From: Faecalibaculum rodentium
GTDB lineage: Bacteria; Bacillota_I; Bacilli_A; Erysipelotrichales; Erysipelotrichaceae
Assembly: GCF_001564455.1 (NCBI RefSeq)
Contig: NZ_CP011391.1
Coordinates: 180,001-212,000, forward strand
Length of the DNA: 32,000 nucleotides
Direction: 5' to 3'
Positions 11,446 to 21,238 of the stretch are shown in pieces. Position 1 is the stretch's first letter. The number at the start of each line of letters is the position of its first letter. Below the pieces are notes generated by a model. The model did not search any database, was not told the origin of the DNA, and was given only the letters and a program-made list of their open reading frames with translations. The translations under genes and the position numbers were made by a program.

Positions 11446-12705
11446 TCAAAGCAGGAAGTATTCAACGGATCTTGAATTACCTGTTCTTCCAATGATGTGA
11501 GCTGCCATCAGCTGATTCAGGAGGTTTGTGGTTTTGGAACGGGAAAAACCGCAGTGGTCTTCAATGGCCTGTCTCCCGGCAAACTTTTTTTCCATGAGAA
11601 ACAGATAAATCTTCTGCTGATCCGGACTCAGATCAGTCAGCTGATTTACAACTGGAAGCGTGACTGAAATTGTGTTTTCCGCCGCATGGAAAGACGGCTT
11701 GACGATTTCATTTTGATAGCTGTTCAGGATTCGTCTCACACCGGTACCGAAACGTTCGATCAGACCAAGCCGCAAAAACACATAGGCAATATGAGGATTG
11801 CGTGGTACGGAGTAGAAATCCTGGAAGTACAGTGTTTCGTTCATGTTTTCGGGAAATCCTCCCGGCGAAATGATTTCTATTCTGTCTTCCAGCATGGCAA
11901 TCTGGATCCGGGCATTCCCGATGGACCAGTCGCGATGAACCAGAGCATTGGCCAGTGCTTCACGGAAAGCCACCTCGGGGATACGGAGGGATACGGTCCG
12001 TTCCATCCCTTCGATGCGTTCTGAAGAGTAGAAGAGAAAGAACAGATCGCAGGCATCATTGTATATATCCAGAACAGACTGTTTTTCCAGTGTTCTTCTT
12101 GCAAGGATCTCATTGTGATCAGTTCCGAAGCGGACAATGTCTACTCCAGGGAAACTGTTTTCAGATGAAAAAAGGAGACCCGCATTGGTATATCCGTAGC
12201 TTTTATCGTAGAGATCAAAAGTGGTCATTGTATCCTTTCCCAGTGTTTCCAGACCGATTTTTTTCTGAAGCAGCTTTTCCAGTGTGGGAAAGGTCAGGTC
12301 CTCTTTCTTGCAGGGAAGCTGATCGAATGTCAGATTCCTGTCTTTCAGAATCATATCCATCAGCAAAGAGCGGTCAATGGGAACTGTGGAAGAATCGCGG
12401 CGTATATAGGCCTGGCCCTGATAAAAATAAGGAGCAAAAGGGCTTTTCGAAACTTCGAGTGTGACCGTTCTGTTACCCTCATCAACATGGATATTGAATG
12501 CTGGAACAGGGTTCAGTGAATTGTTGATTTTGTTTTCAATGCTTAAAGCGGAGCTGGTCAGATCCCTGAGACCTTTGATTTCCAGTGTATCGGTGACACC
12601 AAAAACGATTTTTCCGGTCCTGAAATTTGCGTAGGCAGAGACAGTTTTAAGGAATGAATCTGTTACTTTTTCCTTATATTCCAGAGTGTCTGATTCTCTT
12701 TCCAT
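11446..12705 (-). CDS. AlbA_2 (Schlafen-like) + HATPase_c_4 + C-terminal wHTH protein; the family is usually annotated as 'RecG-like ATP-dependent DNA helicase / putative transcriptional regulator'
   Basis: ATG 12705 is preceded by GAAGGAGAA. The N-terminus DTLEYKEK...FLKTVSAYANFRTGKIVFGV matches AlbA_2. ALANALVHRDW...IEIISPGGFP matches the HATPase_c_4 region. The tail is HTH-like. The segment is visibly AT-richer than its neighbours. The upstream part of the 480-aa ORF crosses the palindrome and was discarded. Confidence 0.85.
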   Translation of the reverse strand: MERESDTLEYKEKVTDSFLKTVSAYANFRTGKIVFGVTDTLEIKGLRDLTSSALSIENKINNSLNPVPAFNIHVDEGNRTVTLEVSKSPFAPYFYQGQAYIRRDSSTVPIDRSLLMDMILKDRNLTFDQLPCKKEDLTFPTLEKLLQKKIGLETLGKDTMTTFDLYDKSYGYTNAGLLFSSENSFPGVDIVRFGTDHNEILARRTLEKQSVLDIYNDACDLFFLFYSSERIEGMERTVSLRIPEVAFREALANALVHRDWSIGNARIQIAMLEDRIEIISPGGFPENMNETLYFQDFYSVPRNPHIAYVFLRLGLIERFGTGVRRILNSYQNEIVKPSFHAAENTISVTLPVVNQLTDLSPDQQKIYLFLMEKKFAGRQAIEDHCGFSRSKTTNLLNQLMAAHIIGRTGNSRSVEYFLL

Positions 12706-12736
12706 ACAGTATTCTCCTTCAGTAAAGTCAGTATAG

Positions 12737-12794
12737 CAGCTAATCGCGAAAAAATGGTAGCAACGTGTTGCTACCATTTTTTCGCGATTAGCTG
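12737..12794. repeat. Perfect 58-bp palindrome (28-bp arms, 2-nt centre), copy B of the flanking repeat
   Basis: CAGCTAATCGCGAAAAAATGGTAGCAAC-gt-GTTGCTACCATTTTTTCGCGATTAGCTG lies 32-89 nt upstream of the AlbA_2 start codon. The inner hairpin is flanked by A6/T6, so it has a bidirectional terminator shape. Confidence 0.9.
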
Positions 12795-12902
12795 CCATTT
12801 TCCAGCCGGACCGCCAGCGGAACCTGCCGGACGTGCCCGTCTGCCCGCTGCCAATGTTCGCTCTGGCCACAGCCCGCAGGGCTGGCATTGCCCGGAAAAC
12901 CC

Positions 12903-12981: not shown

Positions 12982-13947
12982 TCAGTCCCGGACTTCCTTC
13001 GCCTTCTCCCGCCGGCTTTTCTCCCGTAGGGGCTGGATTTCGCCCAGGTCATAGGGCGTGGTCTGGTAGACGAAATAGTTGATCCAGTTTGCATACAGCA
13101 GGCTGGCACTGGACCGCCAGGATACCACGGGGTCTCTGGTGTCGTCGTTATCCGGGTAGTAGTTCTGCGGCATGTCGATGGGCAGGCCCTTGTGCTTGTC
13201 CCGCAGGTACTCCTTTTCCAGGGTCCGCGGATCATACTCCGAGTGACCGGTGATGAAAATCTGACGCCCGCCCTGGGTGCTCACGGCGTAGATCCCTGCC
13301 TCGGGGCTCGAGGCCAGGACCTTGAGCTGCGACTCATTCCGGATCCCCGCTTCATCGGACTCCGTGTGACGGGAATGGGGCACCATGAAGGTTTCGTCAA
13401 ATCCCCGGAACAGCATGCTGTTGGGGCGCTCCGTGTGATGCGCAAAGACCCCGAACAGCTTTTTGTCCAGCTGATGCTTGGCAATGCCGTAATGATAGTA
13501 CAGTCCCGCCTGGGCGCCCCAGCAGATGTGGAATGTCGAGTGCACATGGGTCCGGCTCCACTCCATGATTTCACAGAGCTCCGGCCAGTACTCCACCTCC
13601 TCGAAGTCCATGTTCTCCACCGGTGCCCCGGTGATGATCATGCCGTCAAAATACCGGTCTTTGATGTCCTCGAAGGTGGAGTAGAAGCGCAGCATGTGTT
13701 CCTGCGAGGTGTTCTTCGATTCATGACTCGCCGTCTGCATGAGTTCGAGCTCCACCTGCAGCGGGGTGTTGGACAGCAGCCGGCACAGCTGGGTCTCGGT
13801 TTCAATCTTCGTGGGCATCAGATTCAGGAGAAGGATCTGCAGGGGCCGGATGTTCTGTGTCCTGGCCCGGTCCTCTTTCATCACGAAGATGTTTTCGTTT
13901 TCCAGCGTCGTGACAGCCGGCAGGTCATTGGGGATGCAGATCGGCAT
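12982..13947 (-). CDS. metA: Homoserine O-acyltransferase (MetA family)
   Basis: MPICIPNDLPAVTTLENENIFVM...LQILLLNLMPTKIETETQ...HICWGAQAGLYYHYG. The start overlaps the metY stop by 1 nt (TGATG). Confidence 0.95.
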   Translation of the reverse strand: MPICIPNDLPAVTTLENENIFVMKEDRARTQNIRPLQILLLNLMPTKIETETQLCRLLSNTPLQVELELMQTASHESKNTSQEHMLRFYSTFEDIKDRYFDGMIITGAPVENMDFEEVEYWPELCEIMEWSRTHVHSTFHICWGAQAGLYYHYGIAKHQLDKKLFGVFAHHTERPNSMLFRGFDETFMVPHSRHTESDEAGIRNESQLKVLASSPEAGIYAVSTQGGRQIFITGHSEYDPRTLEKEYLRDKHKGLPIDMPQNYYPDNDDTRDPVVSWRSSASLLYANWINYFVYQTTPYDLGEIQPLREKSRREKAKEVRD

Positions 13948-15218
13948 CAGGCCTGCTCCAGTGCCTGGGCGAGGTCGTCAATGAGATCCTGTGCATCTTC
14001 CAGCCCGCAGGAGAACCGGATCATGGAGGGGGAGATCCCGCATTCTGTGAGCTGTTCATCCGTCATCTGCCGGTGCGTCGCACTCGCCGGGTGCAGGCAG
14101 CAGCTCCGGGCATCCGCGACATGGGTTTCGATCGCTGCAGTTTTCAGCGCCTTCATGACGCGCTCCGCTGCCGCGCGCCCGCCTTTGATCTCGAAGCTCA
14201 CCACCCCGCAGCAGCCATCCGGCAGATATTTTTCGGCCAGGGCGTGATACTTGTCCCCGGGAAGGCCCGCATACTGCACGGCTTCCACCTTCGGGTGGCT
14301 GTCCAGAAACTGCGCCACCGCCAGTGCCGTCTCGGAGTGCCGCTTCATCCGCAGGTGCAGCGACTCGAGCCCCAGGTTGATATAGAAGGCGTTCTGCGGC
14401 GACTGCACACAGCCAAGGTCCCGCATGAGCTGGGACGTGGCTTTGGTGATATAGGCGCCGCCCTGGCCGAATTTTTCGGTGTACACCACCCCGTGGTAGC
14501 TTTCGTCGGGTGTGGTCAGGCCGGGGAAGCGGTCATTCTGTGTCCAGTCGAAGTTGCCGCTGTCAATGATCGCCCCGCCGATGCTGGCCCCGTGGCCGTC
14601 CATGTATTTGGTCGTGGAATGCGTCACGATATCTGCCCCGTGTTCAATGGGCCGGCAGAGAACCGGGGTCGCAAAGGTGTTGTCGATCACCAGAGGAACC
14701 CCGCCGTCATGGGCAGCCTTGGCCCAGGTTTCGATGTCCAGCACCGTGAGCGCGGGATTGGCAATGGTTTCCCCGAAGACCGCCTTTGTATTGGGACGGA
14801 TCGCCGCCCGGATTTCTTCATACGTGCTGTCGGGAGACAGGAACGTCACATCCACGCCCATGCGTTTCATGGTCGTGCCGATGAGATTGAAGGTACCGCC
14901 GTAGATCGAACTGGATGCCACGATGTGGTCCCCCGCCCCGGCGATGTTGAACAGCGCCATGAAGTTTGCGGCCTGTCCCGAGGATGTCAGCATGGCCGCC
15001 GATCCGGCCTCCAGGGCGCAGATCTTCGCCGCCACGGTGTCATTGGTGGGATTCTGGAGCCGGGAATAGAAATAGCCTTCGGCTTCCAGGTCAAAGAGCT
15101 TTCCCATGTCCTCGCTGGTGTCATAGCGGAACGTCGTGCTTTGCACAATGGGGATCTGCCGGGGTTCTCCGTTCCCTGGGCGATAGCCCGCCTGTACACA
15201 TTTGGTGCCTTGTCTCAT
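13947..15218 (-). CDS. metY: O-acetylhomoserine sulfhydrylase (PLP-dependent, Cys/Met metabolism family)
   Basis: ATG 15218 is preceded by GGGAGGA. Motifs QSTTFRYD, YSRLQNPT and THSTTKYMDGHG (PLP lysine) are present. The ORF-track extension to 15596 runs through the T-box leader and was discarded. Confidence 0.93.
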   Translation of the reverse strand: MRQGTKCVQAGYRPGNGEPRQIPIVQSTTFRYDTSEDMGKLFDLEAEGYFYSRLQNPTNDTVAAKICALEAGSAAMLTSSGQAANFMALFNIAGAGDHIVASSSIYGGTFNLIGTTMKRMGVDVTFLSPDSTYEEIRAAIRPNTKAVFGETIANPALTVLDIETWAKAAHDGGVPLVIDNTFATPVLCRPIEHGADIVTHSTTKYMDGHGASIGGAIIDSGNFDWTQNDRFPGLTTPDESYHGVVYTEKFGQGGAYITKATSQLMRDLGCVQSPQNAFYINLGLESLHLRMKRHSETALAVAQFLDSHPKVEAVQYAGLPGDKYHALAEKYLPDGCCGVVSFEIKGGRAAAERVMKALKTAAIETHVADARSCCLHPASATHRQMTDEQLTECGISPSMIRFSCGLEDAQDLIDDLAQALEQA

Positions 15219-15271
15219 ATCTGTATCCTCCCTGTTCTCTGTTCCTGTGCCGATGCCTGCAGCCAGGCCCG

Positions 15272-15490
15272 GAAAATAAAAAAGCGGCTGCCACAGGACG
15301 AAAGCCGCGCTTCGTGGTACCACCTGAATTCGCAGGCGTCTGCCTGCCTCGAGGAAATAACGGTTCCTGCCGTTCCGCCGTTTCTTGCGGACTGCTCCCG
15401 GGCCATGTTCACCGGGTCCCTTGCAGATCCTTTCACCGTACAGATCCTCTCTGGGGCTCAGGGCTTCGGCTACTCTTCCGTTCCACGCAT
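15272..15490 (-). promoter_or_regulatory. T-box riboswitch leader of metY-metA (probably Met-specific), including its terminator
   Basis: The minus strand carries AGAGUA, an AGAGAG bulge, a GGUGAAAG distal loop, the T-box sequence AAUUCAGGUGGUACCACG (15313-15330) and the terminator GCGGCU...AGCCGC+UUUUUU (15272-15310). A possible -10 TATAAT is at 15498-15503. Confidence 0.8.
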
Positions 15491-15561
15491 TTGGTTTATT
15501 ATAGCAGACGACAGACAGGATGGAATACCGGTTTTGGTGGACGAGAATGGAATAAAAAAGA

Positions 15562-15721
15562 TTACCGTGATAAAGCCCTTTCACATAATATCCCACAATG
15601 TGGCGATTATTTTACCGCAGGGCTTTTGTATCCTATGAGTGAGCCAAGGATAGAGGCTCACTTCATAATCAAATTCCCTTTCTTAAACTTTCTTGGAAAA
15701 GAGGCCGCAAGGTCTCTTTTT
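15562..15721 (+). ncRNA. Candidate structured RNA / sRNA, paralogue 1 (unclassified)
   Basis: This 160-bp unit is paralogous to 15854-16013. It has a CCACA-a-TGTGG hairpin and a GTGAGCC-aaggataga-GGCTCAC hairpin (15639-15661). A conserved core TTCATAATCAAATTCCCTTTCTTAAACTTTCT follows. It ends in the terminator AGAGGCC-gcaa-GGTCTCT+TTTTT (15699-15721). A possible promoter is TTACCG-N18-TAATAT (15562-15591). Confidence 0.4.
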
Positions 15722-15727
15722 CAATTG

Positions 15728-15866
15728 TACCGGGCAAAACCGCGCATTTTACGGCGGTCAATGATTGACTCGGGTAACCAGAACGCGCATTGGTCTGACC
15801 CTTTACGGTGGTAAAAAAGTGAATCGGGTAAACCCTGGATTTGTCAAGACTTTTTAATGTGGTAAA
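15728..15866. repeat. Tandem 51-54 bp repeat array carrying TTAcgGTGGTAAA-like 13-mers
   Basis: 13-mers sit at 15749 (TTACGGCGGTCAA), 15803 (TTACGGTGGTAAA) and 15854 (TTAATGTGGTAAA), plus an isolated copy at 15562 (TTACCGTGATAAA). CGGGTAAnCC and GCGCATT sub-motifs also repeat. Confidence 0.6.
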
Positions 15867-16013
15867 GCGCTTTCACACACTTTCCCACAGTGTGGCGATG
15901 ATTAAAACATACACCCTTGGTAGACTAAGGACGAGTCAAGGATAGGACTCACTTCATAATCAAATTCCCTTTCTTAAAACTTTCTGCAAAAGGCCCGTGC
16001 AAGCGGGCTTTTT
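15854..16013 (+). ncRNA. Candidate structured RNA / sRNA, paralogue 2 (unclassified)
   Basis: The architecture matches paralogue 1: CCACA-g-TGTGG, GAGTC-aaggatag-GACTC (15933-15950), and an identical core with one extra A (TTCTTAAAACTTTCT). The terminator has an unrelated sequence, GCCCG-tgcaag-CGGGC+TTTTT (15993-16013). Confidence 0.4.
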
Positions 16014-16058: not shown

Positions 16059-16466
16059 ATGAATGACAGAAAAACGGACACCAGGAATCTGGACGGGACA
16101 CAGTTTGCGGCGTTCAGCCGGGAGATGGAGCACCGGATGGAGCAGCTGCTGTGTATGAAAAGACTGCTGGAGCAGACGAAGACGGCAATGGATGACTGCC
16201 GTGAGCCGGCCCGTACACTGTATGACTGGTATTTCAAAGGCAGCTGGCTGCAGGACAGAGACCGGGAAGAAAAACACCCGCTGAAGCAGCCGGCGGGTGT
16301 CTACAGCGAAGACGGACTGTATGACCTGTTTCAGGATCTGGAGGATCTTTGCAGATCAGTGGAAGAGGCAGTCCGTGACTTCCGGCTGCAGATGAATCCG
16401 GAAACCGGAGACGGAGAAAAAAGCCGGGGGATTGTGCAGGACGGACAACAGAGCCAGAAACAATAA
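16059..16466 (+). CDS. DUF4298-like small cytoplasmic protein (hypothetical)
   Basis: ATG 16059 is preceded by AAGGAGGAA. The block LYDWYFKGSWLQD...GVYSEDGLYDLFQDLEDL matches the pattern I recall for DUF4298 (YY.S..W..D ... VLSEDGLYDLL). Length is 135 aa. Confidence 0.65.
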   Translation: MNDRKTDTRNLDGTQFAAFSREMEHRMEQLLCMKRLLEQTKTAMDDCREPARTLYDWYFKGSWLQDRDREEKHPLKQPAGVYSEDGLYDLFQDLEDLCRSVEEAVRDFRLQMNPETGDGEKSRGIVQDGQQSQKQ

Positions 16467-17370: not shown

Positions 17371-18672
17371 TCACTGCCGCAGGGCAGTCACAGCCGGAAT
17401 CTTCACGGCACGGGCGGCGGGGAAGAACCCGGAGGCCAGACCGATCGCCAGGGAGAATCCCATCCCCAGCAGCGCCAGCCACCAGGGAATGGCCGACAGC
17501 TGCATGCCTGCAACCTGATTCATGCCAAAGGAAATGAGATACGACAGCACGATTCCCGCCGCGCCGCCCAGAAAGCCGATGAGCCCGGACTCCGTCAGAA
17601 ACAGCAGCCGGATGTCCCGGGTCCGGCACCCCAGGGCCTTCATGATGCCGATCTCCCGGGTCCGCTCGGTAATGGACATGATCATCGTATTGGTGATGCC
17701 GATTGCTGCCACCAGCAGGGAAATGGCACCCAGGCCCCCCAGCACCAGCTGTATGGTACGGGCCTGTTCATCCATGGATTCCCGCAGGCTCTTGTAGGAA
17801 TTCGTCATGTACCCTGCCGTTTTCAGCGACGCTTCCACATCCGGGACTTCCTCCATGTCGGCGGTCTTCACATCGATTTCGCTGTAAGTCTTTGACGGAG
17901 AAGTCATGCCAAACCGCCGGCTGGCTTCTTCCATGATTTCCTGCAGGGCTTTCTGGTCCATGATGATGCCCTCGGAGGTTTCATACCCCAGGGAATAGTT
18001 CTCCTCCAGCATCCCCACCGGCCGCAGCTGGACTTCATAGGGCTCGCCTTCCGGATCCATGGGATTGGACAGAGACAGCGTCAGTTCCGTGTTCATGGGA
18101 TCAAACCACGGAGCCGGGGCGTTTTCCGCGGTGAAGTTTCCGCTTTCGTCCATGCTGTAGCGGTCCACCATGTCTTCTCCCTCCGGACGGGCTGTATCCC
18201 GGAAACTGTAGGCCGAATACTGCCCCACCAGGACCGGAACCGCCGATGAGGTCCGGGAAAGGTTCAGGCTGCCCATCAGGGGTTTGTACCCCGCAGCTTC
18301 CAGCTCATTGCGGTCCACACCCACCACATTCGCCCAGCCAGACTGGTAACGGCCGTTGGAGGCAGTGATCCCGGACATGAAGTCACTCAGGGATTGCTTC
18401 GCGATCACGGTCTTAGCCCCGGGAGTCTCCTGAATCGTGCGCAGATCGCTGTCCTGCAGTATGCCGTCTGCCTTGCCCATGACCTGAATCAGCGTCAGGT
18501 CCCCCATGCCTGCCATCATTTCTTCGGTGGACTTCGTCAGTCCCACGCCAATGGACACCATCACGACAATGGAAGTGCAGCCGATCATGACGCCAATGGC
18601 GGTCAGGATGGTCCGGGACAGCCGCTGGCGCAGATTGTGGATGGCCAGAGACAGGATGTCAGAGGGTTTCAT
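17371..18672 (-). CDS. MacB/FtsX-type ABC transporter permease with a large extracytoplasmic domain
   Basis: MKPSDILSLAIHNLRQRLSRTILTAIGVMIGCTSIV (TM1) is followed by a ~230-aa loop and then three C-terminal TMs with the FtsX signature (REIGIMKALGCRTRDIRLLFLTES). ATG 18672 was chosen, and a TTG at 18732 is also possible. The gene overlaps the upstream gene by 14 nt. Confidence 0.88.
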   Translation of the reverse strand: MKPSDILSLAIHNLRQRLSRTILTAIGVMIGCTSIVVMVSIGVGLTKSTEEMMAGMGDLTLIQVMGKADGILQDSDLRTIQETPGAKTVIAKQSLSDFMSGITASNGRYQSGWANVVGVDRNELEAAGYKPLMGSLNLSRTSSAVPVLVGQYSAYSFRDTARPEGEDMVDRYSMDESGNFTAENAPAPWFDPMNTELTLSLSNPMDPEGEPYEVQLRPVGMLEENYSLGYETSEGIIMDQKALQEIMEEASRRFGMTSPSKTYSEIDVKTADMEEVPDVEASLKTAGYMTNSYKSLRESMDEQARTIQLVLGGLGAISLLVAAIGITNTMIMSITERTREIGIMKALGCRTRDIRLLFLTESGLIGFLGGAAGIVLSYLISFGMNQVAGMQLSAIPWWLALLGMGFSLAIGLASGFFPAARAVKIPAVTALRQ

Positions 18673-20293
18673 GGCTGTCCGGGCCGCTCTTTGGATCTTT
18701 GCTGTCGCTGTTTTCCGGTTCCGGATTGTCAAAGAGAGCCGTCACATCCCCGGGCTTCGCCAGAGTGGCTTTCTTCTTCTTTCTGCTGCGCAGCCACCAG
18801 AATGCCGCAGCCGCCAGAACGATCAGGCCTGCCGCCAGCCAGCCCCAGGGAATGGACGGCGTTTCTTCTTCCATGGGCATCATTTCGCCGCCTTCCGGTG
18901 CTGTGGGTATGTTTTCCTGCACCGGCAGTGTGAGCTCGAAGGACTTCTTCACTTCTTCCCCGGCAGTGTTTTCCCAGGCTATGACAGCCTTGAAGGTGTG
19001 ATCTCCGGCTTCCTGCGGGGTCAGAATCAGGTCGATGCTGCCCGAACGCCCGGAGTCGATGTTACCCAGGTTCTGCTTTGGACTCAGAGTCGTCATGTCG
19101 CCCTCCACATAGGCCTCCAGGTTGTACACCGTGCCCTTTCCCTTGTTGTTGTAGGGAACACTCAGGGTGTATTCCTGACCTGCCACCGCCGGGGTCAGAT
19201 CCTTTGGCGCCTCCAGCTCAAACCGGTCCGGTTCCGTGACTGGGATGGCAATGCGCTCCTGTGCGGTTTTCTCCAGACGCTGGTCTCCATCCACATACTC
19301 ATAGGTGAAGCTCACTGTGCAGGAGGGTGAAGAACTCTTGTCCATGTTCAGGGCCTTCATGGGTATTTTCTGCGAACGGACAGCCCCGGCGCCCAGGTTC
19401 TCGAAGAAGAATGTGTTGCTGGAATTGGTGATGGTCAGCCCCTCTTCCGTTTCCACGCTCATGAGGATATTTTCCACAGCCAGGGATTTGGAGGTGTTCC
19501 GGAATTCGATGGAGAGATCGAATTTCTTTCCTGCCTGCACAGACTCCCCACCATAGGTGTACTTCGAAATGATGATATGCGGCGTGGCGGTCTGGATCTT
19601 CACCGGCTCCGAACCCTCGCCGCCGTAGGATCCCCCGAAGCCGCCATAGGCATCCCCGCCATCTGTTCCGGGATCGGTCTGTGTGCCGTTTTCCGGATTC
19701 TGTTCCGGGTCCTGGCGATCTGCCTCTTTCTCCGAAACTTCATAAATCCGCACATCCTTGCGGGCTGCACCGCCGGCGGTCTCCAGGGTGAAGGCAAAGT
19801 TGTCCTCCTTGCCCCGCCAGGCCACATCCTCAAAAGTCACCTCCAGACGCAGGGGCTTGTCCTGCTGTGAAGCCAGTGTGATCACCGGTGTGCCACCCTT
19901 GAAGGCATCCGACAAGCGGGTCACGGCCAGGTTTTCCGGATCTTTTCCCGGCTGTGATGGCGTGAAGGCCGAAGTCGGACGGGGAGAAGTCAGAGTCAGT
20001 TTCAGGTCGGCTCTCTGCCCCTTTTCCCAGGCATCGGACTCTTTGCCTTCAATGAAGACCCGGATATCGGAAATGCTCACAAGCCCGGCCAGGTTCTCCT
20101 TCTGATCCTGTCCGTCCGTTCCCGGATTCTTTGTGTCAGCCGGATCTGTGGCCGGTGTCTTTGTCTCTTCTGTTGTTTCGCGTTCAGGCTGCGGGTGCGC
20201 ATTCTGTGCCATGACAGGCATGACCGGAACGGCCAGCAGAGCCGCCAGCGCCAGGGCGCTCAGTCGTTTTTGTGTTCTGTATGCTGATTCCAT
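18659..20293 (-). CDS. Secreted, C-terminally membrane-anchored surface protein with Ig-like (CARDB/COG1361-like) repeats; ABC-associated
   Basis: It has a signal peptide (KRLSALALAALLAVPVMPVMAQN), acidic T/P/E/D linkers and a G/Y-rich linker. Two beta-rich modules follow (KYTYGGESVQAGKKFDLSIEFRNTS..., AVAGQEYTLSVPYNNKGKGTVYNLEAYVEG...). The C-terminus has a TM WGWLAAGLIVLAAAAFWWL followed by RSRKKKK. The domain family assignment is by eye only. Confidence 0.75.
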   Translation of the reverse strand: MESAYRTQKRLSALALAALLAVPVMPVMAQNAHPQPERETTEETKTPATDPADTKNPGTDGQDQKENLAGLVSISDIRVFIEGKESDAWEKGQRADLKLTLTSPRPTSAFTPSQPGKDPENLAVTRLSDAFKGGTPVITLASQQDKPLRLEVTFEDVAWRGKEDNFAFTLETAGGAARKDVRIYEVSEKEADRQDPEQNPENGTQTDPGTDGGDAYGGFGGSYGGEGSEPVKIQTATPHIIISKYTYGGESVQAGKKFDLSIEFRNTSKSLAVENILMSVETEEGLTITNSSNTFFFENLGAGAVRSQKIPMKALNMDKSSSPSCTVSFTYEYVDGDQRLEKTAQERIAIPVTEPDRFELEAPKDLTPAVAGQEYTLSVPYNNKGKGTVYNLEAYVEGDMTTLSPKQNLGNIDSGRSGSIDLILTPQEAGDHTFKAVIAWENTAGEEVKKSFELTLPVQENIPTAPEGGEMMPMEEETPSIPWGWLAAGLIVLAAAAFWWLRSRKKKKATLAKPGDVTALFDNPEPENSDSKDPKSGPDSHETL

Positions 20294-20982
20294 GTTTCCT
20301 CCACAATGTTTCCGTCTTTCAGTGTGATGATGTGATCTGCCCAGGCTGCGGCGTCCGGGTCGTGACTGACGATGACGATCGTCTTGCCCGACTGCCGGGA
20401 AAACCGGTGCATCATCTCCATCACCGCCCGGGAACTCTTCGAGTCCAGGTTCCCCGTGGGCTCATCCGCGAAAATGATCTCCGGGTCCGTGATGAAGGCC
20501 CGGGCAATCCCGGCACGCTGCTGCTGGCCCCCGGACATCTGACCGGGTTTGTGACGCATGCGGTCTTCCAGGCCCACTGCCTTAAGCAAAGCGGCGGCTT
20601 TTGCCTCTCTTGTATTCCGGCTGATGCCTTCAAAGAGCAGCGGAAGCGCCGTGTTTTCCAGCAGGCTGAGATGCGGCAGCAGATTGTAGGACTGGAAAAT
20701 GAAGCCCATGTGCCGCCGGCGGAAATCCGTCAGCTGTGTCTGGTCCAGCAGGTTGATGATCGTGCCGTCTATGCGGACAGCGCCGGACGTGGCCGGTTCC
20801 AGTCCCGCCAGCTGATTGAGCAGGGTGCTTTTCCCTGAACCGCTGGGTCCGAAGATGCAGCAGATTTCCCCCCTTGCAATGTCCAGGGAGACATCGTCCA
20901 GTGCCACCACCGGATCATCCTCCACCGGGTATTCCCGCCGCAGGTGCCGGACTTCAATGATGGGCTGCGGTGTGTTGTTCAT
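20260..20982 (-). CDS. ABC transporter ATP-binding protein (MacB/LolD-like)
   Basis: ATG 20982 is preceded by GAAAGGGA. It carries Walker A GPSGSGKST, the signature MSGGQQQR and Walker B IIFADEPT. It overlaps the next gene by 34 nt. Confidence 0.93.
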   Translation of the reverse strand: MNNTPQPIIEVRHLRREYPVEDDPVVALDDVSLDIARGEICCIFGPSGSGKSTLLNQLAGLEPATSGAVRIDGTIINLLDQTQLTDFRRRHMGFIFQSYNLLPHLSLLENTALPLLFEGISRNTREAKAAALLKAVGLEDRMRHKPGQMSGGQQQRAGIARAFITDPEIIFADEPTGNLDSKSSRAVMEMMHRFSRQSGKTIVIVSHDPDAAAWADHIITLKDGNIVEETWNQHTEHKND

Positions 20983-21238
20983 AGTGATCCCTTTCTTCCT
21001 GTCTGGTGAGGACGCCGGCTCCGGTGTCACCGGAGGCCGTACGTGTGTCATATACAGCGTACCGTCCGCAGGACCTGCTTTTTCTTAAAAACTTTCAAAG
21101 TTTCCGGCATAGTCTGTCAAGTAAGAGAGCATCTGGCGGATCTGTGATGCTGCGGTCCGTGCAATCCGGGGAGCAGTCTGTGTATCCGGACCGGAAAATG
21201 GCAGACGGATGCAAAATTCAGGGCCGGGGCAAGGTATA

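Follow-up and report, generated by a model that had tools for sequence, protein, structure and literature searches.

The stretch of DNA analyzed here, hereafter the window, spans 32,000 nt of Faecalibaculum rodentium (contig NZ_CP011391.1, positions 180,001 to 212,000) and harbors two direct repeats at 15562-15721 and 15854-16013, which lie 292 nt apart in the intergenic region between a metY-like gene with its T-box leader and a DUF4298 gene. These flanks and a gap of ~840 bp had been named in an initial annotation made from the sequence; the flanks were confirmed by Rfam and Pfam, and there are 837 bp between the start codons of the Cys/Met pyridoxal phosphate (PLP) enzyme gene and the DUF4298 gene. 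Each of the two units is probably an independent gene for a trans-acting small RNA (sRNA) of ~82 nt, which would belong to a multicopy family of sibling sRNAs distributed across the Erysipelotrichaceae. The locus contains the following features:

12982-13947, minus strand: homoserine O-succinyltransferase gene (Pfam)
13947-15221, minus strand: Cys/Met PLP enzyme gene, metY-like (Pfam)
15291-15494, minus strand: T-box leader (Rfam, 102 bits), ahead of the metY-like/homoserine O-succinyltransferase operon
15639..15721, plus strand: predicted sRNA copy 1, ~82 nt, 5' end placed to within 2 nt (from the fold); hairpin 15639-15661, unpaired anti-translation-initiation-region core 15662-15695, terminator with U5 15696-15721
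15933..16013, plus strand: predicted sRNA copy 2, ~81 nt (from the fold); hairpin 15933-15950, unpaired core 15951-15986, terminator with U5 15987-16013
16059-16466, plus strand: DUF4298 gene (Pfam)

Both 160-bp units were recovered at the coordinates assigned to them initially, and in the alignment the copies share a 5' block, a hairpin, a core and a terminator. Identity between copy 1 and copy 2 amounts to 72% over the 5' 92 nt and to 89% over 45 nt of the core, which had rightly been described as near-identical with a single 1-nt indel (AAAC versus AAAAC). A 26-nt core pattern and a pattern of the 5' block each match the window exactly twice, with 0 matches expected from 100 shuffles, and the window contains only this one repeat family. 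In the plus-strand folds of both copies, a long unpaired stretch separates a short 5' hairpin from a strong terminator hairpin with U5 behind it. The 5' stems are GUGAGCC/GGCUCAC in copy 1 and GAGUC/GACUC in copy 2, and the terminator stems are AGAGGCC/GGUCUCU and GCCCG/CGGGC, respectively, such that the pairings proposed in the initial annotation form as stated and are kept although the stem sequences vary. The plus-strand folds are more stable than those of shuffled sequences (z of -6.1 for copy 1 and -3.5 for copy 2), whereas the minus strand folds more weakly (z of -3.2 and -1.8). A profile of the family matches copy 1 at 15639-15700 and copy 2 at 15930-15993 (nhmmer). Neither repeat has a match in Rfam 15 at the gathering score, as had been anticipated, and lowering the threshold to E<=10 yields only noise from terminator-like matches in the repeat region.

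The family was collected by searching one genome per prokaryotic species for an exact 20-mer of the core (ATAATCAAATTCCCTTTCTT), which returned 63 loci. Family copies are present at 60 of these, the others (L008, L049 and L062) having neither hairpin nor terminator. The copies derive from ~41 genomes, as counted from record titles, and nearly all of these are Erysipelotrichaceae, with Dubosiella, Faecalibaculum, Ileibacterium, Allobaculum, Holdemanella, Absicoccus, Faecalitalea, Faecalicoccus, Catenisphaera and Floccifex as host genera. A search of related genomes with the core thus finds conservation outside the source genome; the two repeats are not the isolated pair they were first taken for, and the proposal that they are plus-strand non-coding sRNA genes, each with an intrinsic terminator, is strengthened by the comparison. 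Copy number ranges from one per genome, as in Holdemanella and its relatives, to at least eight: four copies, arranged as two tandem pairs, are found in a Faecalibaculum metagenome-assembled genome (MAG), and 6 to 8 or more in Dubosiella muris, D. newyorkensis, strain M10-2 and strain OPF54. Tandem pairs and triples occur, and the diverged neighbors added by a profile search of the loci give triples in Ileibacterium valens (L004) and D. newyorkensis (L005). The locus of the window itself was found in 229 blocks of public assemblies. No match to plasmid and phage collections was obtained by blastn, and a literature search returned no paper with the core sequence and none describing an sRNA in the host genera; the sRNA family is apparently undescribed so far. 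Complete copies with Erysipelotrichaceae-type flanks were also seen in bins labeled Bacteroidaceae, Segatella copri and Waltera intestinalis (L015, L044 and L050), for which contamination during binning is a more likely explanation than true presence. One further typical copy (L064, 14590-14683; IMG/VR) comes from a viral contig of 39.8 kb, at the very border of its stored part, and may represent host DNA flanking a prophage.

All aligned copies have only three parts in common, namely the 5' hairpin, the unpaired core, which reads CACUUCAUAAUCAAAUUCCCUUUCUUAAA(A)CUUUCUUG, and the terminator. The hairpin is usually GAGCY/RGCUC, and diverged copies have unrelated stems (GAACAG/CUGUUC, GGGGUUA/UAACCC, GACC/GGUC). 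Its positions pair in 86% of cases in register, compared with 22-38% when the partners are slid, changes on both sides are seen in 5 of its 7 pairs, and the covariation score was reached by none of 500 shuffles; RNAalifold finds the same hairpin independently and leaves the core unpaired. The covariation for which the initial annotation had proposed a check is therefore present. The loop AAGGAUAG, which had been described as conserved, is indeed shared within Faecalibaculum and with a few relatives, but is not a family-wide feature. A terminator was found in 65 of 65 copies: a U run follows a hairpin whose energy ranges from -11 to -27 kcal/mol, and the stems comprise 56 different sequences. 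Terminators are also called by the scan tool in L017 and L033. The implied length of the RNA is 83-106 nt (median 89 for the 65 copies). Since the G-U pairs that occur in both the hairpin and the terminator helices are valid on the plus strand only, they fix the strand. Comparison of the copies thus shows a predicted plus-strand transcript consisting of a 5' hairpin, an invariant single strand of ~35 nt and an intrinsic terminator.

Upstream of the hairpin, two classes of putative promoters can be distinguished, in both of which -10 and -35 motifs recognized by eye directly precede it. Class A, to which both window copies belong, has the direct repeat (A/T)TCACA-N4-(A/T)TCACA, to which a third element, (G/A)ACATA, is often added at a distance of about one helical turn, and a -10-like box (TATAGT, TATACT, TATTCT or TATCCT) a few nt before the hairpin. 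In class B, which lacks the TCACA block, GAGCRTT..TTGGCA-17-TGnTTTAAT with an extended -10 is found instead and ends just before the hairpin; about half of the family copies lack the TCACA block and have a putative ordinary sigma-A-type promoter in its place. For Floccifex (L033), a promoter was called by the scan tool as well, namely TTGAAT-16-TG-TATAAT, the end of which lies 6 nt upstream of the hairpin. The repeat [AT]T[CA]ACA-N4-5-[AT]T[CA]ACA has 29 matches in the 0.5 Mb formed by all loci and the window, and for 26 of these an sRNA follows on the same strand at a distance of 30-120 nt. Only three TTCACA-N4-TTCACA repeats are located away from sRNA genes, and one of these, at L007 4330-4345, where no clear downstream gene was identified, could point to a further member of the regulon. 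The elements assigned in the window are:

15562..15575, unstranded: degenerate TTAC-N4-GTAA palindrome TTACCGTGATAAAG, candidate operator upstream of the copy-1 promoter (by eye; alignment with L011 and L030)
15579..15609, plus strand: class A block of copy 1, TTTCACA-TAAT-ATCCCACA and then GGCGAT (register-aligned with class A promoters)
15629..15634, plus strand: candidate -10 box of copy 1, TATCCT (by eye; invariant in the window, L011 and L030)
15749..15760, unstranded: spacer palindrome TTAC-N4-GTCA, degenerate, within direct repeat D3 (alignment with L011 and L030)
15803..15814, unstranded: exact palindrome TTAC-GGTG-GTAA, candidate operator 127 nt upstream of the copy-2 hairpin (kept in L011 and L030)
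15854..15867, unstranded: degenerate palindrome TTAATGTGGTAAAG upstream of the copy-2 promoter (alignments of the copies and with L011 and L030)
15871..15901, plus strand: class A block of copy 2, TTTCACA-CACT-TTCCCACA and then GGCGAT (in register with copy 1 and other class A promoters)
15921..15926, plus strand: candidate -10 box of copy 2, TAGACT (by eye)

Copy 1 was assigned to class A by register rather than by the repeat pattern, because its second repeat reads CCCACA, and the -10 boxes of the window were assigned by eye; an automatic -10 statistic proved too noisy. Tandem hexamers about one helical turn apart, at or upstream of the -35 region as expected of promoters of the OmpR/PhoB type, are found in class A, and the comparison shows that the putative window promoters carry tandem repeats of the kind bound by such response regulators, together with a palindromic candidate operator. 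With an E. coli PhoB sequence as the query, a tblastn search of the window and of all sRNA loci detected no gene of the OmpR family. The PhoP box of B. subtilis is presumably TT(A/T/C)ACA, which TTCACA would fit; it was not found in the literature searched and serves as a lead only. The palindrome TTAC-N4-GTAA has 13 exact sites in 496 kb, of which 8 lie 76-130 nt upstream of an sRNA hairpin, as compared with 0.43 expected, and in three loci (L003, L010 and L023) it occurs in pairs at -76 and -103 from the hairpin. It looks like the operator of a dimeric regulator, separate from the TCACA direct repeats, and its copies in the window explain the extra repeat D3 in the spacer. The spacing N4 is the correct one, as TTAC-N6-GTAA, which was also tried, has 0 sites near sRNAs. 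By eye, a promoter of the T-box operon was also noticed (TGcTATAAT, ~15500-15512), which diverges from the copy-1 promoter ~130 bp off.

The shared 5' block that the initial annotation had described (TAAAGC..TTTCACA..CCCACA..GGCGAT) is thus present in both copies, but it reads as promoter and operator DNA rather than as RNA, and for this reason the RNAs are placed at ~15639-15721 and ~15933-16013. The region upstream of the hairpin is, as far as comparison of the copies shows, a predicted promoter, and the RNA would start at the base of the hairpin. The transcript of 120-160 nt that was first envisaged is accordingly shortened to ~82 nt, the 160-bp unit being read as promoter plus RNA.

Every family copy is intergenic, and the functions of the downstream genes vary. 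In about one third of the cases the downstream gene is encoded on the opposite strand, which argues against a leader or attenuator. A common arrangement in many genera comprises a gene for a conserved ~107-aa protein, one to three sRNA genes and a gene for a GT4 glycosyltransferase. The ~107-aa protein (MKLSKREREALA...RNGKK..LKKID.Y) has no Pfam or NCBIfam match and, by eye, two hydrophobic segments; its genes precede the sRNAs in many loci, among them:

L023, 1632-1952: ~107-aa protein gene upstream of the sRNA
L061, 2530-2850: ~107-aa protein gene upstream of the sRNA
L005, 6032-6358: ~107-aa protein gene upstream of the sRNA
L012, 3759-4133: ~107-aa protein gene upstream of the sRNA

The GT4 glycosyltransferase is closest, below threshold, to the IagA/BgsA enzymes, which synthesize the glycolipid that anchors lipoteichoic acid. 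Instead of the ~107-aa gene, a gene for a second conserved protein of ~176-185 aa (...GKRMWF..DGFFFGDRFFKFKDI...) with no Pfam match above threshold precedes the sRNA in Absicoccus, Faecalicoccus and Faecalitalea. At the level of strains, one variant carries ~10 single-nucleotide polymorphisms (SNPs) in the 837-bp gap, none of which lies inside either RNA. Comparison with another Faecalibaculum species shows nearly identical RNAs, as opposed to an identity of only ~60-70%, judged by eye, in promoters and spacer. Both patterns point to selection on the RNAs.

The order of elements in the core suggests how such an RNA might act. CAU is followed by the spacer AAUCAAA and then by UUCCCUUUCUU, which would stand opposite a purine-rich Shine-Dalgarno (SD) sequence, and the reverse complement of the core, AAGAAAGGGAAUUUGAUUAUGAAG, accordingly consists of an SD sequence, a 7-nt A/U-rich spacer and AUG. 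The suggestion that the CU-rich unpaired core is an anti-SD-like seed is thereby supported. A real initiation region of this type is found in L008 (6470-7089), where the clpP start region (AAGAAAGGGAAUUUGAUUAUGAG) matches the core complement at 23 of 24 positions, so that 23 nt of the complement coincide with a genuine start site. As the relatives of this ClpP are named Gastranaerophilaceae or Cyanobacteria, which belong to a different phylum, the match only illustrates that the core complement is a working initiation region; clpP was rejected as a conserved target, L008 being no family host, and the match was judged a coincidence of a good ribosome-binding site. The sRNA would most likely block translation of target mRNAs: the core is predicted to pair with translation-initiation regions, CAU on AUG and UUCCCUUUCUU on the SD sequence, which would block binding of the 30S subunit and lower the translation, and probably the stability, of several targets. 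Different promoters would let the copies answer different signals, and hence the family might integrate inputs and adjust dosage. This is the scheme of the CiaR-dependent sRNAs (csRNAs) of streptococci and of the LisR-dependent LhrC1-5 of Listeria. In its widest form, the proposal is that of a lineage-wide set of sibling sRNAs, with at least eight copies in the Dubosiella/Faecalibaculum/Ileibacterium clade, an invariant single strand of ~35 nt that mirrors an idealized translation-initiation region almost perfectly, and two interchangeable promoter types, which arose independently of the csRNAs and serves as a general, signal-tuned brake on translation initiation; the balance tips slightly in favor of this. 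A more radical version would have the family titrate a conserved protein or a ribosomal site.

Several observations weigh against the proposed sRNA genes and their pairing with start regions. Duplex energies of the core with ~6,650 candidate start regions, drawn from the ~0.5 Mb of loci and window, do not surpass those of shuffled cores. The genes adjoining the sRNAs fared no better as candidate targets and were rejected: the start regions of the ~107-aa genes have a mean of -13.9 kcal/mol, values of -18 to -26 being seen in Dubosiella alone, and the duplex values of GT4, DUF4298 and metY are unremarkable. The invariant stretch of ~35 nt exceeds the usual length of a seed, and would also suit a protein-binding RNA. 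The promoter scan called no promoter in the window, and the 5' ends of the RNAs are placed by promoter-like motifs only. Finally, the invariance of 20 nt of the core is partly by construction, the family having been collected with an exact 20-mer. The flanks of the 20-mer, which were not selected for, are almost invariant too, and four neighboring copies found by position only have kept the 20-mer with at most two changes, with stems that differ.

Alternatively, the RNA could be real but use its CU-rich repeats (CCCUUUCUU ... ACUUUCUU) to bind and titrate a protein, or the ribosome, rather than to pair with mRNAs. An invariant stretch longer than a normal seed across genera and paralogues, two CUUUCUU motifs and a target scan without enrichment would all fit this explanation. 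It is nevertheless unlikely, as the register CAU-N7-UUCCC reproduces the exact geometry from SD sequence to AUG, no candidate protein is known, the target scan spanned only ~0.5 Mb, and the csRNA siblings also conserve their unpaired region (PMC3091779). A different question is where the RNA begins. The full 160-nt unit could be transcribed, with the 5' block as a structured RNA domain, since this block is kept between the window copies and in copy 1 folds into a stem, AAAGCCCU/AGGGCUUU. This stem, the sole one predicted in the block, is missing in copy 2 and in the Faecalibaculum MAG (L011 and L030), and in one strain an SNP (CC to GG) disrupts it without a compensating change; moreover, about half of the family has a putative sigma-A promoter at this place, and the motifs of the block are phased direct repeats and a palindrome, which makes the longer RNA improbable. 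Even less credence is given to the elements being cis-acting leaders or attenuators of the downstream gene, or to a minus-strand reading as an SD sequence with a mini open reading frame (ORF). The DUF4298 start codon lies 46 nt past the end of copy 2, and the minus strand does read an SD sequence and then AUG AAG UGA, but the convergent orientation of the downstream gene in about one third of the loci and its varying function, the absence of a predicted alternative antiterminator fold and the fact that tandem copies each have their own putative promoter and their own terminator speak against a leader. Read from the minus strand, the G-U pairs would turn into A-C mismatches, and the element would face the end of the upstream gene, which usually lies on the strand of the element.

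That the units are repeated DNA without an RNA function, i.e. a miniature inverted-repeat transposable element, an insertion sequence end or the remnant of a duplicated gene, would account for their multicopy and tandem occurrence. However, no inverted-repeat ends were seen, the window contains a single repeat family, the 1-nt indel inside the core leaves no conserved coding frame, the arrangement of 107-aa gene, sRNA and GT4 is syntenic across genera, the plasmid and phage searches were empty, and conservation is confined to the RNA-structured part with flanks that differ, hence this explanation is very hard to sustain. Common ancestry with the streptococcal csRNAs, of which the family would then be diverged members, was considered as well. 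The csRNA family (RF02379) is the sole sRNA family in Rfam with full-length matches below threshold on the predicted RNAs (19-24 bits): weak alignments to model positions 1-93 lie exactly on the RNAs of L017 (24.4 bits) and L005 (23.4 and 19.2 bits). The architecture is the same, and both have UUCAUAAU and then UCC. The gathering score of 57 bits is not reached by far, and the window has no match to the family even at E<=10. The CiaR box NTTAAG-N5-TTTAAG is found in 0 of 70 upstream regions and the csRNA nonamer [A/C]UCCUAAA[A/C] in 0 of 70 copies, the nearest string being UUCUUAAAAC, and the best local alignment between the unpaired regions, the 8-mer UUCAUAAU, is not significant against shuffles (p ~0.2). 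Homology to the csRNAs, which is thus very doubtful, was rejected on score, promoter box, nonamer and shuffle test, and since the Rfam score, the CiaR box and the nonamer all fail, the family is regarded as an analogue of the csRNAs and not as a member.

Apart from the sRNA locus, the window has three Rfam matches at the gathering score, two of them to group II intron families and one to the T-box. The group II intron occupies 8241-10120, with domains D1-D4 at 8241-8412 and the 3' end at 10046-10120 according to Rfam, and encodes a reverse transcriptase/maturase ORF at 8697-10010 (RVT_1 and GIIM). Adjoining the met operon, a gene at 11446-12888 (minus strand) encodes a Schlafen AlbA_2 and HATPase_c_4 protein, an architecture that presumably belongs to defense or DNA-processing contexts. 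Further along, in the region 17371-21051 (minus strand), an ORF of 544 aa (18659-20293) without a Pfam match is flanked by genes for an ABC ATPase (20260-21051) and for a MacB/FtsX-type permease (17371-18732).

The host family includes the gut commensals Faecalibaculum rodentium, Dubosiella newyorkensis and Holdemanella biformis, and no report of a regulatory RNA in Erysipelotrichaceae was found in the literature searched. As an entry point, the sRNA family would offer a conserved RNA in several copies, whose boundaries are clear and whose seed is predicted, together with two predicted cis-regulatory motifs from which the regulators could be traced. For annotation, it would add an Rfam-type family and account for many 'empty' intergenic regions in these genomes. 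The family would also represent a second, apparently independent case of the csRNA design, i.e. anti-AUG and anti-SD siblings behind response-regulator boxes, and would bear on how often such a solution evolves.

In the initial annotation RoxS/RsaE was named as a parallel, yet the design of the streptococcal csRNAs, which combines anti-AUG and anti-SD elements, is the closer one. The csRNAs have an unpaired region with anti-SD and anti-AUG elements between two stem-loops, and this region is likewise highly conserved among the siblings (PMC3091779). The same architecture is found here, with CAU-AAUCAAA-UUCCCUUUCUU as the core: like the csRNAs (ccnA-E, RF02379, Streptococcus), the predicted RNAs are ~80-100 nt long with 5' and terminator stem-loops flanking unpaired CAU and anti-SD elements, several very similar sibling genes exist per genome, some of them adjacent, and the putative promoters contain direct repeats of the response-regulator type. 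The csRNA promoters carry NTTAAG-N5-TTTAAG 10 bp from the -10 box (PMC3091779), whereas (A/T)TCACA-N4-(A/T)TCACA lies, by eye, ~35-60 nt upstream of the -10 box in the family described here. Further differences are the anti-SD element, which is UUCCCUUUCUU rather than CUCC, the other host family and the predicted ordinary sigma-A promoter in about half of the family. LhrC and RoxS/RsaE (RF01820) resemble the family less closely, and neither of them was listed by Rfam at E<=10 in the window, L005 or L017. The LhrC1-5 RNAs of Listeria monocytogenes are multicopy and tandem, pair with ribosome-binding sites through CU-rich/UCCC motifs and are under two-component control in response to envelope stress. 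Many copies of the present family adjoin a gene for a membrane-glycolipid-type glycosyltransferase, while LhrC presents its motifs in three loops or linkers and the family described here has one UCCC in a single long unpaired stretch. RoxS/RsaE is a single-copy RNA with several CCCC/UCCC motifs; it is also a Firmicute sRNA in which C-rich unpaired motifs pair with SD sequences, whereas the Erysipelotrichaceae family is multicopy and adds an anti-start-codon element.

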